This document shows positions 1 to 3,778 of a stretch of DNA of 64,000 nt, piece by piece. A program made the translations under genes and the position numbers. Below the pieces are notes generated by a model, which was not told the DNA's origin, ran no database searches, and worked only from the letters and a program-made list of their open reading frames with translations. Within the stretch, counting starts at the first letter, position 1. Every line of letters begins with the position of its first letter. This DNA comes from Escherichia phage JM10. The stretch is from sequence record PP400777. One strand, given 5' to 3'.

Positions 1-1810
1 ATTCTTTACGAAGTTCTGAATCATCACCCATCAACATTTCAAAGAGTTCTTTCCAATTTTCAGGAAGTTTAACTACGTCGTACACAGGGTTCTGAATCAT
101 TTCACGATATTCTGACTTTTCAAGGGAGCCCAATCCCTTGATGTATCGAATACTATGCTTAGGCAGTGTATCTTTAACTTCTTCATACTCAGCTACAGTA
201 TAAAACCATTTTTGAGTTTTGCCAATTTGTGCAATAATTACAGGCGTTTTAACAAAGCGAATACGTCCTTGTTCGAACAATTCAGGCCAATTACTAAAGA
301 AAGCAAGCAAAGCCGGATAAATACTTCCAAGACCGTCATGATCGGCATCGGTCATAATTGCAATATTACGATAGTTCGTATTCTCTGCCTTTTCACCAAG
401 AATAAGACCTGTGATAGCACAGATATCAAAGAGCTCTTTGTTCTTCATCATATCAGCATATGACATACCCCAGCTATTCATCACCTTACCACGTAACGGG
501 AATCCGCCGTGTAGTTCACGGTCACGAACATCAATGAGATAACCAATTGCAGAATCACCTTCTGTTAAGAACAATGTCGTATCTGCATCTTTACCACATT
601 GGTTAGCTTTAATATGCTTATGAACCTTAGCTTTAGTTGCCTTTTTAGCTGCTTTAGTTTCTGCAGCCTTTTCTGCCGCCAATTTACGAGCTAATGCTGC
701 TTCAATTATAGGCATTAAAACTGCTTCAGAATTCAAAATATTTTTTGCCAATTTTTTTGTATCTAATTTAATATGCGTCCGAATTTCGCCATAAGGACTT
801 GTTAAACGCTCTTTTGTTTGGGAATCAAAACGAAGGTTCTTCATTCCACGAACGAACATTAAGAGAGTGAGACATTCCTTGATGCGCGCTTTAGTCACGT
901 CGATTTTATATTTGCGTTTAATAGCCGGAATTAATTCTTCGCAAATGTCGTCCATCACACATTCAATGTGATGACCACCGTTTTTGGTATGGATGTTATT
1001 CACATAAGTTAAATGACGGAAGCCATCTGGTGACCGTCCAATGGCAATAGAGCATCCGTCTTGTTCTTGAATGATGGTCTCTTCATCAAATTGTTTAGCA
1101 AACTTCTTAAAGTTACCTTGAATCTTTTTGCCATTAAATTTAAATTCAATACCAGGATAAACAACCGCCAATGTTTGGAGACGGTCTATAGTAATATCTT
1201 GGTATATTTTTTCAAATTGATTCATTTCAAAATGTGAGAAATCAGGAATAAACTCGACCTTAGTACCGTTGTTTTTAGACGGCTTAGATTTCCAAGAAAT
1301 ATTATCAGCGTTATTAGAACAATTAACGGTCAATTCATTTTTACCATCTGAAGTAGTGCCAACAAAAGAGACAGAAAAAATATTTGTTAATGAAGAACCG
1401 ACACCGTTTTGTCCACCCGTAACACGTTCTTTGTCGTCACCAAAGTTGCCACCGGCTTTTGTACGTGTCCACGCCGCAACTGGTCCTGGAATTTCTTCTC
1501 CTTCAGGAGTAATAACTGTTTCTTGAGGAATACCTCGACCATTATCTTCAACAGTCACTTTATTAGAATTTAAATCAATACTAACGGAAATTTTATTAGC
1601 ATATTTGAAATTGGTTCGAATAGCTTCGTCTACTGAGTTGTCAATAATTTCATCAATTAATTTGAGAACACCTGCAACATATTTAACCTTTTTAAATTCA
1701 CCGAATAGGAAACGTTCTTGTTCTTCATTGGCAACACTTCCAATATACATGCCAGGACGCTTCAAACAATGCTCTTTATCAGATAGCATTTCAATTTTAT
1801 TATCAATCAT
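1..1810 (-). CDS. 39: DNA topoisomerase II large subunit (GyrB-like), partial; continuous through the region that is a separate gene 60 in T4
   Basis: Hand translation from ATG at 1810: MIDNKIEMLSDKEHCLKRPGMYIG...DNSVDEAI...EDNGRGIP (GHKL ATPase), later EGDSA and IMTDADHDGLGS (Toprim), open to position 1. Absent from ORF track because it has no stop inside the window. Confidence 0.85.
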   Translation of the reverse strand, partial: MIDNKIEMLSDKEHCLKRPGMYIGSVANEEQERFLFGEFKKVKYVAGVLKLIDEIIDNSVDEAIRTNFKYANKISVSIDLNSNKVTVEDNGRGIPQETVITPEGEEIPGPVAAWTRTKAGGNFGDDKERVTGGQNGVGSSLTNIFSVSFVGTTSDGKNELTVNCSNNADNISWKSKPSKNNGTKVEFIPDFSHFEMNQFEKIYQDITIDRLQTLAVVYPGIEFKFNGKKIQGNFKKFAKQFDEETIIQEQDGCSIAIGRSPDGFRHLTYVNNIHTKNGGHHIECVMDDICEELIPAIKRKYKIDVTKARIKECLTLLMFVRGMKNLRFDSQTKERLTSPYGEIRTHIKLDTKKLAKNILNSEAVLMPIIEAALARKLAAEKAAETKAAKKATKAKVHKHIKANQCGKDADTTLFLTEGDSAIGYLIDVRDRELHGGFPLRGKVMNSWGMSYADMMKNKELFDICAITGLILGEKAENTNYRNIAIMTDADHDGLGSIYPALLAFFSNWPELFEQGRIRFVKTPVIIAQIGKTQKWFYTVAEYEEVKDTLPKHSIRYIKGLGSLEKSEYREMIQNPVYDVVKLPENWKELFEMLMGDDSELRKE

Positions 1811-2486
1811 TAGATTTTCTCTCAAATTGCATGACTATATTTTTGTATGAACCTTCCGGAAATCCACGTTTAATGCTTTCTTTAGCAAATTTCCCAACCT
1901 TTGGTTTATCCAATTCTAACCATAATTTATATAAAGCAGATTCATATTCCCATACAGGACTTTTACGATTTTTAAGCCCACACTTTATAAGTGCTTCCTT
2001 TGTATGTTTCTTATTATAAAATGGATTGTTTTTGCCACTCATTGCTTTAGAATGTTCCGGGCGCTTAATTCCATACATCGGATTAAGATCGCCTTTCTTG
2101 ATAACGGATTGTAGTTCAATAGTTTCTTCAGAGTGATTGTGTCCATAAAATGGATTTAACTCTTTTGAAACATCCATACCAAAGCACCCATCGACTGTGG
2201 CATAAGACATGTTGAAAAATTTTTCAGATTTAACCACATTATGCAATTTCTGGTAATACAACTCACAAAACGTCGCTTCTTCCCGTGTATCAAATTCGCC
2301 AATAATACATGAATCAAATAAATGAGGATTATCTTTTATCTCTTTATCATAAATTTGTTTATATTTTTTCGACTTTACCGTACCATGATAGTGATTGTTT
2401 GTATGTTTATCAAGATAAGTAGACCCTATATAAAACGGTGGCAACTTATCGCCTGTGTATATTGTTAAGTATGTTATGTATTTCAT
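1803..2486 (-). CDS. GIY-YIG homing endonuclease with NUMOD3 repeats (Seg-like), free-standing
   Basis: N-terminus YITYLTIYTGDKLPPFYIGST (GIY...YIG); three NUMOD3-like repeats NPFYGHNHSEETIE / NPMYGIKRPEHSKAMSG / NNPFYNKKHTKEA; stop overlaps gene 39 start. Confidence 0.7.
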   Translation of the reverse strand: MKYITYLTIYTGDKLPPFYIGSTYLDKHTNNHYHGTVKSKKYKQIYDKEIKDNPHLFDSCIIGEFDTREEATFCELYYQKLHNVVKSEKFFNMSYATVDGCFGMDVSKELNPFYGHNHSEETIELQSVIKKGDLNPMYGIKRPEHSKAMSGKNNPFYNKKHTKEALIKCGLKNRKSPVWEYESALYKLWLELDKPKVGKFAKESIKRGFPEGSYKNIVMQFERKSND

Positions 2487-2492
2487 AAAGGT

Positions 2493-2519
2493 ATTCTATC
2501 ATCCGAAATCTAAAGCAAA
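2493..2519 (-). promoter_or_regulatory. MotA-dependent middle promoter (MotA box TTTGCTTTA, 12 nt, -10 TAGAAT)
   Basis: Minus strand reads TTTGCTTTAGATTTCGGATGATAGAAT, 7 nt upstream of the ATG at 2486. Confidence 0.55.
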
Positions 2520-2535
2520 AAGGGCCGAAGCCCTT
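2514..2535 (-). terminator. Rho-independent terminator (6-bp GC stem, UUCG loop, U-tract)
   Basis: Minus strand AAGGGC-UUCG-GCCCUU followed by UUUUUG; directly after stop of 2534..2959. Confidence 0.6.
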
Positions 2536-2959
2536 ATTTAAATTTAATTTTCTGAAGTGCATCAATTGCAGCCAAACGTCCTTGTTCACTTTTAACTGTA
2601 ATGACCACATCGCCTGATACGATCACCGAACCATCAACAAATTCTATAGAGCCTTTTTTGAAATCGACAGCTGTATCTGGTTCCTGAACTTCTTCAAAGA
2701 ATTTAAATTCTGCACCATAAAGCAGAATATCACCTTGCATACTATGAATAGTTCGGCCATAATCGCCTACGGCTTCTACAGCAATAACCGAAACACCGTA
2801 ACCAATCATCTCTTCCACAATAAAATCTTTGGACAATAAAGTAGTATGCAGATTAGTATTAAGACGTTTACCAGTCGTATTAAGAATTCTCAAGAAATTA
2901 TCTTCCTGTCCTTTGATAATACGATATTTCTTACCAACTTCAAAACCTTTAAAAGCCAT
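2534..2959 (-). CDS. hypothetical early protein, 141 aa (position and size resemble T4 goF; not verified)
   Basis: ORF track; ATG preceded by SD; followed by terminator. Confidence 0.6.
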   Translation of the reverse strand: MAFKGFEVGKKYRIIKGQEDNFLRILNTTGKRLNTNLHTTLLSKDFIVEEMIGYGVSVIAVEAVGDYGRTIHSMQGDILLYGAEFKFFEEVQEPDTAVDFKKGSIEFVDGSVIVSGDVVITVKSEQGRLAAIDALQKIKFK

Positions 2960-2962
2960 AAT

Positions 2963-3141
2963 TAACCCTTCTTAAGTAAGTCGTAAAAACCACCATTCAC
3001 ATGTTTAGGAGCAGAAACCCGACGAGTAGACAGATGATGACATTCAGGGCAAACATCGTTTTCTCGTTCAGAAATTCTTTTAATTTTTTCATATTCATGA
3101 CCACAATCTTCAGATTGACATTTATAGTCGTATAACGGCAT
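2963..3141 (-). CDS. small zinc-ribbon protein, 58 aa (FmdB-like CxxC...CxxC)
   Basis: Hand translation [59 protein letters not shown]; start overlaps upstream stop (TAATG); below ORF-track size cutoff. Confidence 0.55.
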
Positions 3142-3572
3142 TATTGTTCCTTAAAATGTGCTTTCAACATTTGATACAAAGACCATGCCTGGTCGTTATT
3201 TTCGATAGTAATTGTCATCACCGGAAATTCAGACAATTCGTCAAGTTCACCAGAATCTTGCTCTTCGGACGCTTGATACGGATTTCCCACTTCGTCAAAG
3301 AACTCTGCTTCATTCGTGGAGAGCCAGATAAAGTTTTCATCAAGAATATCACCGCCTGTTGCGTATCCAACCGTGCCAGTAGATGTCACAATTTTAGTAG
3401 GACGACCAAGATGGTCAACATCTAATACTTTAAATGGTTCCATGCCAAGACGTCGTGCATAAATCCCATTATCAGTGTGGCCTTTAATAAACTCTTCTTG
3501 GGCACGTTTATCTTTAAATTGGTACCATGAGTTAACGCGGAATTTATTAGCCATTAGTAAGTTTCCTTCCAA
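3141..3572 (-). CDS. hypothetical protein, 143 aa
   Basis: ORF track; tightly packed minus-strand operon. Confidence 0.55.
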
Positions 3573-3778
3573 TAAGTTGTACCGTTTTCAGTGATTTCAC
3601 GGAAGATACCATAGATAGGCATTTCATCACCGAGTTTTTCGTAAACGTAAACCACTTCAGTGTAGCATAAAAATTCAGTCCAGTTTTTCTGTACAACAAC
3701 TAAATCAGGATTAAACAGAACATCTTCAAACTCATCGATGTTTGAATCAGTAGTTACGTTTTTAATGATTTGACGTTT
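3554..3778 (-). CDS. hypothetical protein (start adjusted to MKRQIIKN; track ORF 3554..3826 extends into the SD/promoter)
   Basis: N-terminal ...SKQEENIM is a translated SD (GAGGAG). Confidence 0.45.

Follow-up and report, generated by a model that had tools for sequence, protein, structure and literature searches.

A free-standing Seg-like GIY-YIG endonuclease gene ahead of an unsplit topoisomerase gene 39 in Escherichia phage JM10, a likely product of intronless homing

The Seg endonucleases of phage T4 spread by intronless homing, and their genes make use of both harnessed and embedded promoters (PMC2988022). Embedded promoters are known for segG, segA, segE, mobB, and mobC (PMC2988022), and the co-conversion observed with SegF, SegG, SegB, and SegE follows the pattern predicted for intronless homing (PMC2988022; PMC2330249). 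In the topoisomerase gene, insertion of the MobA element at codons ∼466 to 473 gave rise to a split gene (bioRxiv 10.1101/2022.08.31.505936). Here we analyzed the corresponding locus in a 64,000-nucleotide (nt) stretch of Escherichia phage JM10 (PP400777), referred to as the window. Gene 39, encoding the large subunit of DNA topoisomerase II, lies at its beginning on the minus strand and is directly preceded by a gene for a GIY-YIG endonuclease (Table 1). In the interpretation that we consider likely, an ordinary unsplit T4-type gene 39 is preceded here by a free-standing Seg-like GIY-YIG cassette that has spread by intronless homing.

Seven Mosigvirus phages (G2285, AV109, AV114, AV115, AV116, AV118, and HX01, all of the RB69/HX01 group) match the whole of window positions 1 to 3600 with 97.5 to 98.3% identity. 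The insertion is present in 8 records (7 phages), versus ∼300 Mosigvirus records without it that align as two pieces with 80% query coverage. Comparison with APCEc01, which has no endonuclease gene, revealed the limits of the imported block. On the left, APCEc01 is identical through ...TAGAATACCTT and then diverges, the junction being the base before the endonuclease ATG. This comparison indicates that the cassette starts one base ahead of the ATG and replaces the gene 39 leader. On the right, gene 39 differs from that of APCEc01 by 325 mismatches in nt 1 to 1105 (about 30%) versus 12 in nt 1106 to 1810, and the junction falls in a conserved linker after the ATPase-transducer module (amino acids ∼369 to 378; window ∼677 to 706). 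The imported part of gene 39 thus encodes the ATPase and transducer domains. The upstream flanks are 92 to 99% identical to APCEc01, and the endonuclease-bearing phages HX01 and G2285 are no closer. On both sides, the sequence that borders the block is 97 to 99% identical to that of endonuclease-less phages. The nearest relatives of the imported gene 39 segment outside the seven sibling phages are those of the Dhakavirus phages Bp7 and FB (79% nucleotide identity), of IME281 (77%), and of Tegunavirus TG1 (75%); FB is the only one of the four without the endonuclease. The endonuclease-less allele groups with those of T4 and phiR1-RT (72% identity), whereas the block groups with endonuclease-bearing alleles elsewhere (75 to 80%).

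The endonuclease gene occupies the same position in other genera. Searches with tblastn and contig look-ups identified full-length orthologues (56 to 78% identity) in 13 further lineages. The 14 lineages come from Mosigvirus, Dhakavirus, Tegunavirus, Gualtarvirus, Jiaodavirus-like Klebsiella and Enterobacter phages, and metagenomes. In every one of them, gene 39 directly follows the endonuclease gene, whose stop codon overlaps or abuts the gene 39 ATG. Pairs of phages with and without the gene also differ in gene 39. In Tegunavirus, a divergent gene 39 block separates TG1 (with) from phiR1-RT (without) until about nt 1100. In Jiaodavirus, the block that separates Mexia (with) from BovinicusUrsus (without) extends until about nt 660, at the ATPase/transducer boundary. 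The smallest converted region in common is the leader plus gene 39 nt 1 to 660. Among Klebsiella phages, 11 Mexia-type records carry the endonuclease, compared to roughly 130 BovinicusUrsus-type records without it.

The junctions in these genera have some features of their own. The right junctions coincide with topoisomerase domain boundaries, after the transducer in Mosigvirus and Tegunavirus and after the GHKL ATPase domain in Jiaodavirus, and the topoisomerases that result are chimeras in which whole modules have been exchanged. BovinicusUrsus has a hypothetical open reading frame (ORF) of 122 amino acids, gp271 (locus 1223-1591), between the terminator and gene 39. This ORF is missing from the endonuclease-bearing Klebsiella (Jiaodavirus) genomes (Mexia locus 2440-2500), and its absence makes the Klebsiella left junction unlike the Mosigvirus one.

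What kind of protein does the inserted gene encode? A preliminary description of this DNA had reported a GIY-YIG ORF of 227 amino acids with three NUMOD3 repeats, and our analysis agrees: the Pfam NUMOD3 model matches in three stretches, and the predicted fold is I-TevI-like. The frame has a TAG 12 nt ahead of the ATG and the following Met is residue 93, so only this ATG gives a complete N-terminal domain. At a threshold of E ≤ 1e-5, 152 homologues were found in a database search, and PHROGs assign the product to homing-endonuclease families. From the N terminus, the protein would comprise a GIY-YIG nuclease, three NUMOD3 DNA-binding repeats within a linker, and a helical C-terminal domain that is probably a DNA-binding helix-turn-helix. 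The AlphaFold model (mean predicted local distance difference test score, 88.7) has a GIY-YIG alpha/beta fold, and Foldseek placed the I-TevI catalytic domain at the top rank. The GIY and YIG motifs are represented by T8-I9-Y10 and Y19-I20-G21, with predicted strands E3-10 and E18-24. In an alignment of 51 homologues, Y10, G12, P16, Y19, I20, Y33, S39, E49, F57, A71, and E75 are invariant, and both G21 and N92 (the conserved-Asn position, N90 in I-TevI) are found in 50 of 51.

Profile methods gave a narrower result. An hhalign comparison of the family with an I-TevI sequence verified at the expected positions of E75 and N90 placed E75 on I-TevI E75 but aligned solely the E75 region, with 57% probability, so that the fold is assigned from the predicted structure. 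The group I intron endonuclease model TIGR01453 scored below threshold (24 bits versus a cutoff of 56). A single-sequence search of Protein Data Bank (PDB) sequences found no match, and the family profile matched just the NUMOD3 part of I-TevI, its DNA-binding domain (1I3J). The ratio of nonsynonymous to synonymous substitution rates (dN/dS) between orthologues is 0.1 to 0.28, an approximate range given that dS is saturated, and indicates that the orthologues are under purifying selection. Taken together, these results identify the protein as a GIY-YIG enzyme of a divergent subfamily, most likely an active one.

The gene itself is already in GenBank (HX01, G2285, AV109-118), often under the wrong name, and appears to be uncharacterized. 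RefSeq labels the proteins of HX01, Bp7, IME281, and TG1 (NC_028820) "HNH endonuclease," whereas the original submissions of TG1, Mexia, and KMI12 name the orthologue "GIY-YIG homing endonuclease." On the basis of fold and motifs, the RefSeq label is wrong and GIY-YIG is correct. In the searchable literature, which most subscription papers lie outside, we found nothing relevant on an endonuclease upstream of gene 39. The endonucleases of IME281 and Bp7 (Dhakavirus) have nearly identical C-terminal halves and N termini of different types (MFIVYL with a Shine-Dalgarno leader in IME281; MKYITYL without one in Bp7), a mosaic that indicates recombination within the endonuclease gene.

The insertion of a cassette directly ahead of an essential gene raises the question of how both genes are expressed. 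The preliminary description had credited the endonuclease with a middle promoter and a terminator of its own. The terminator lies upstream of the endonuclease gene, right after the stop codon of the preceding gene, and the −10 box of the promoter ends 6 nt ahead of the endonuclease ATG. Every base of both elements is the same in APCEc01, and T4 gene 39 is preceded by the same arrangement of terminator, promoter, and leader; they are therefore resident signals of the locus and not the endonuclease's own. In APCEc01, 17 nt separate the shared ACCTT from the gene 39 ATG and include a GAGGAG Shine-Dalgarno sequence. The window has 16 matches to the MotA-type pattern TGCTTYA-N11-13-TANNNT, compared to 1.7 expected from shuffles, and 11 of the 16 fall on the minus (coding) strand.

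Gene 39 expression would be kept by elements within the cassette, namely, the embedded MotA-type promoter and a Shine-Dalgarno sequence in its last codons. The embedded promoter motif is found at the same position in 12 of the 14 orthologues; in the remaining two, TCC in place of TCT is the sole difference. Codons 177 to 196 are the only stretch of the endonuclease gene with a majority-codon fraction of at least 0.85 (mean, 0.70), and GCT, TTA, and GAA are invariant within them despite the saturation of dS elsewhere. The embedded promoter would probably drive gene 39. As the preliminary description had noted, the endonuclease stop overlaps the gene 39 start, here by 8 nt. The orthologues have GAGAG, GAGAGGA, or AAGGA in their last codons, 6 to 9 nt ahead of the gene 39 ATG, and we infer that the GAGAG element of JM10 serves as the Shine-Dalgarno sequence of gene 39.

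The start of the endonuclease gene itself is unusual. Nine orthologues begin with MKYITYL (type A); none of the nine has a Shine-Dalgarno sequence, and all nine have a −10-like hexamer 6 to 7 nt ahead of the ATG, belonging to a MotA-type promoter in six and a sigma-70-like promoter in three. By comparison, each of the five orthologues that begin with MFIVYL (type B) is preceded by an ordinary leader containing AGGAGG or GGAG. The JM10 gene has the order TAGAAT, 6 nt, ATG, without a Shine-Dalgarno sequence. Of the 105 putative genes in the window, only this one and one other, whose start is doubtful, have a hexamer so placed. The paralogue found upstream of gene 47 in other phages does not have this spacing, which is thus not general to the endonuclease family. 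The usual distance from the −10 box to +1 is 7 nt; with the spacing seen here, transcription would start at the A of the AUG. We therefore raise, tentatively, the possibility that type A endonucleases are made from a leaderless mRNA whose first base is that A. Read-through transcripts from upstream would then be silent for want of a Shine-Dalgarno sequence, and the enzyme would come only from transcripts begun at this promoter, mostly MotA-dependent middle ones. A search for leaderless mRNA in T4-type phages found none in the searchable literature, most subscription papers being outside its reach. If true, the leaderless reading would mean that a homing endonuclease of T4-type phages can be timed and throttled in a new, transcript-specific manner, and a cassette with its own embedded middle promoter and Shine-Dalgarno sequence would be a self-sufficient, "expression-neutral" insertion.

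Gene 39 itself is not interrupted in JM10. Its frame is open from 1810 to 2 on the minus strand (603 codons without a stop), and the product matches the Pfam families HATPase_c, DNA_gyraseB, Toprim, and TOPRIM_C. In HX01 and G2285 (98% identical), the coding sequence has 606 codons and ends ...LRKEWMS*, so the JM10 stop is expected 11 nt past window position 1. T4 gp39 and gp60 together align end to end with the JM10 product and are colinear with it. The alignment of gp39 reaches ...ITGLVLGEKA, and the two coding parts of gp60 align from NY.N.AIMTDADHDG/LGSIYP through the end of the protein. The T4-type split, with its HNH cassette near codon 470 and 50-nt bypass, is absent; the frame is unbroken through LILGEKAENTNYRNIAIMTDADHDG. 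The frame is likewise open through the Toprim DADHDG motif. This bears out the preliminary description, which had reported a gene 39 frame continuous through the Toprim DxD motif and without a T4-style split into genes 39 and 60 in the window.

The preliminary description went further on two points. It presented the unsplit gene as notable, a view that the comparison does not favor: gene 39 is unsplit, with about 606 to 608 codons, in 14 of 14 orthologous loci and in the endonuclease-less relatives examined. Because the split arises by MobA insertion, the unsplit gene represents the ordinary condition; we take it to be the default in T4-like phages, with the T4 split as the exception, and not a distinguishing feature of JM10. 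It also proposed a different endonuclease state at the same locus. The insertion state does differ, but the sites are not the same, since mobA of T4 sits at codon ∼470 and the JM10 gene lies before codon 1.

The comparative pattern described above fits homing with co-conversion of flanking markers, and the preliminary description, which had proposed a likely site of homing-driven marker exclusion, was right in outline. In such a scenario, the cassette would have come from a divergent T4-like donor and recombined into the Mosigvirus lineage, replacing the gene 39 leader from just past the resident middle promoter's −10 box and bringing along ∼1.1 kb of donor gene 39. During mixed infection, the enzyme would cut the endonuclease-less allele, probably in the leader or in the first ∼660 nt of gene 39, and repair off the endonuclease-bearing genome would copy the cassette and, linked to it, the resistant 5′ portion of gene 39. 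The outcome would be intronless homing with localized marker exclusion, as for T4 SegF, SegG, SegB, and SegE. We looked for candidate target sites by contrasting 13 endonuclease-bearing with 4 endonuclease-less alleles (four genera), selecting 24-mers at least 90% conserved without the endonuclease and with at least 6 to 7 differences in all 13 bearing alleles. Two weak candidates emerged, gene 39 nt 46 to 76 (KRSGMYIGS) and nt 376 to 410 (GGMNGVGS); they are weak because the overall divergence of ∼33% nears the signal. The diverged JM10 version of the former would presumably be resistant, on this hypothetical assignment.

Several observations weigh against this scenario. A Lys (K27) stands at the position of the catalytic Arg27 of I-TevI, and this position varies across the family (K in 33 of 51, R in 10, and other residues in 8). 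The Pfam GIY-YIG model gave no match at E ≤ 0.01. The AV118 copy (locus coordinates 1501-2183) carries a 1-nt deletion in an A6 run at nt ∼117 that truncates the product after ∼49 amino acids, and the record annotates only a remnant of 135 amino acids; this frameshift reflects either gene decay or a homopolymer sequencing error, and such a copy speaks for a gene that is able to decay. Gene 39 is identical between Dhakavirus Bp7 (with) and FB (without), so the divergent allele is not always linked to the endonuclease, and the target may instead lie in the leader or at the insertion site. Finally, no close donor of the imported block (>80% nucleotide identity) was found in the phage collection. 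All of these but the last would be accommodated if the endonuclease were an inactive relic, or were domesticated, for example, to bind DNA and regulate the gene 39 promoter in the manner of the autorepressor I-TevI, and if the block resulted from ordinary mosaic recombination unrelated to cleavage; the embedded promoter would give the phage a use for this DNA with or without an active protein. We nevertheless consider a relic or domesticated protein unlikely. A full-length ORF has been maintained in 14 lineages with the low dN/dS given above, Y10, Y19, Y33, E75, and N92 are invariant or nearly so, the divergent block begins exactly at the cassette in three genera, and the patchy presence and absence is typical of active homing endonuclease genes.

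Could the endonuclease-less state be the derived one? The cassette would then be ancestral and lost in most Mosigvirus phages, and the APCEc01-type allele would be the newcomer. Comparisons of two states by themselves give no direction, and FB does resemble an endonuclease-less phage with an endonuclease-type gene 39 allele. However, the cassette is present in only 7 phages, against ∼300 Mosigvirus records of the APCEc01 type; the alleles group by endonuclease state, the one without it with endonuclease-less genera and the block with endonuclease-bearing alleles of other genera; and endonuclease-less phages retain a complete T4-like promoter, leader, and Shine-Dalgarno sequence. We infer that transfer was into Mosigvirus and regard ancestral presence followed by loss as very improbable, clearly more so than the relic or domesticated protein. 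The missing Shine-Dalgarno sequence ahead of the ATG might also be read as the mark of a chance open frame or annotation artifact; the 152 homologues, the confident nuclease-fold prediction, and purifying selection rule this out, and we give it practically no credence.

The coordinates of these features are collected in Table 1. On the minus strand, the gene order is gene 39, the endonuclease gene, a goF-like ORF, a 39.2 zinc-ribbon ORF, a second goF-like ORF, and cef. The two goF-like ORFs are paralogous (2534-2959, 141 amino acids, and 3141-3554, 137 amino acids, minus strand); both belong to PHROG 622 with weak goF matches and enclose the 39.2-type zinc-ribbon ORF of 59 amino acids (2962-3141). 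At the T4 locus, goF is a single copy. Scans of the 64 kb found no tRNA genes and no Rfam families at gathering score, the latter implying that there is no group I intron. A local tblastn search and a motif scan found no second endonuclease copy or other GIY/NUMOD3 ORF in the window, where the gene described here may be the sole GIY-YIG/NUMOD3-type homing endonuclease gene.

Table 1. Positions of the features of the gene 39 locus in the window
Feature	Position	Strand	Basis or remark
Gene 39, DNA topoisomerase II large subunit, unsplit	1810..1	minus	603 of 606 codons inside the window
Toprim DADHDG motif	332-349	minus	frame continuous across 332..406
Equivalent of the T4 39/mobA/60 split point, LILGEKAENTNYRN	365-406	minus	alignment with T4 gp39 and both gp60 exons
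Imported block, 1,782 bp: endonuclease gene and first ∼1,105 nt of gene 39	706..2487	minus	putative co-conversion tract
Counterpart of candidate target 1, gene 39 nt 46-76, KR(S/P)GMYIGS	1735..1765	minus	24-mer contrast, weak
8-nt overlap ATGATTGA, containing the gene 39 ATG and the endonuclease stop	1810..1803	minus	sequence
GAGAG Shine-Dalgarno-like element for gene 39	1819..1823	minus	in endonuclease codons F-E-R, 8 nt before the ATG
Embedded MotA-type middle-promoter motif, TGCTTTA-13-TAGAAT	1938..1913	minus	within the endonuclease gene; gene 39 ATG 102 nt downstream
Free-standing Seg-like GIY-YIG homing endonuclease gene, 227 amino acids	2486..1803	minus	ORF, three NUMOD3 repeats, fold, homologues
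C-terminal helical domain	1818..1958	minus	likeness to T4 SegA C terminus
Three NUMOD3 repeats	1992..2156	minus	Pfam PF07460, three stretches
NUMOD3 repeats NPFYGHNHSEET, NPMYGIKRPEHS, NPFYNKKHTKEA	2121-2156, 2049-2084, 1992-2027	minus	Pfam PF07460
N-terminal GIY-YIG catalytic domain, amino acids 1-103	2178..2486	minus	Y10, Y19-I20-G21, K27, Y33, E75, N92
Resident gene 39 middle promoter, MotA-type TGCTTTA-12-TAGAAT	2517..2493	minus	pattern enrichment; shared with APCEc01
Intrinsic terminator of upstream gene, AAGGGCTTCGGCCCTT and T-run	2535..2520	minus	terminator scan; annotated terminator in G2285

One endonuclease in one slot in at least five genera amounts to a natural experiment in intronless homing. 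In three genera, the ATPase or ATPase-transducer module of an essential topoisomerase has been swapped along with the endonuclease, which suggests that selfish nucleases may drive the modular exchange of essential genes over genus boundaries. The topoisomerase large-subunit gene would thus be exploited by two families, the HNH enzyme MobA (codon ∼470) and the GIY-YIG enzyme described here (codon 1). The embedded promoter and the possible leaderless start would illustrate how such cassettes spare their host.

How does this cassette compare with known systems? Like the T4 Seg endonucleases (SegA to SegG, with SegF/gene 56 and SegG/gene 32 among the examples), it is a free-standing GIY-YIG gene in an intergenic position, in the same orientation as, and beside, an essential DNA-metabolism gene. 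The Seg genes likewise harness a resident middle promoter, carry an embedded promoter for the downstream gene, show a patchy distribution, and are accompanied by a co-conversion tract in the adjoining gene (PMC2988022). Unlike them, it lies before gene 39, where T4 has no seg gene, and its catalytic subfamily (YLTIY.G.KLPPFYIGS ... GYHGS) escapes the Pfam GIY-YIG model; likeness to SegA is confined to the C-terminal half, at 27 to 28% similarity. I-TevI of the T4 td intron differs in being intron encoded and is ∼20% identical to the JM10 enzyme, which has Lys at the Arg27 position and in which a zinc finger was not detected. A paralogue directly upstream of gene 47, likewise an essential DNA-metabolism gene, in many Tequatrovirus phages shares an N-terminal nuclease domain (55 to 65% identical). 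In G9062, the gene for this protein (gp062; 207 amino acids; locus 1995-2618) follows alpha-gt on one side and on the other shares 23 nt with the start of gene 47. It differs in its locus and in an unrelated C-terminal half without NUMOD3, as if domain shuffling had given one nuclease module a new target. T4 mobA/gene 60 provides the closest parallel in place, as a homing endonuclease at the topoisomerase gene that mobilizes flanking topoisomerase sequence (bioRxiv 10.1101/2022.08.31.505936). MobA, however, is of the HNH type, and its insertion within the ORF at codons ∼466 to 473 divides the gene and introduces a 50-nt translational bypass, whereas the JM10 enzyme is of the GIY-YIG type, sits upstream of codon 1, and leaves gene 39 intact.

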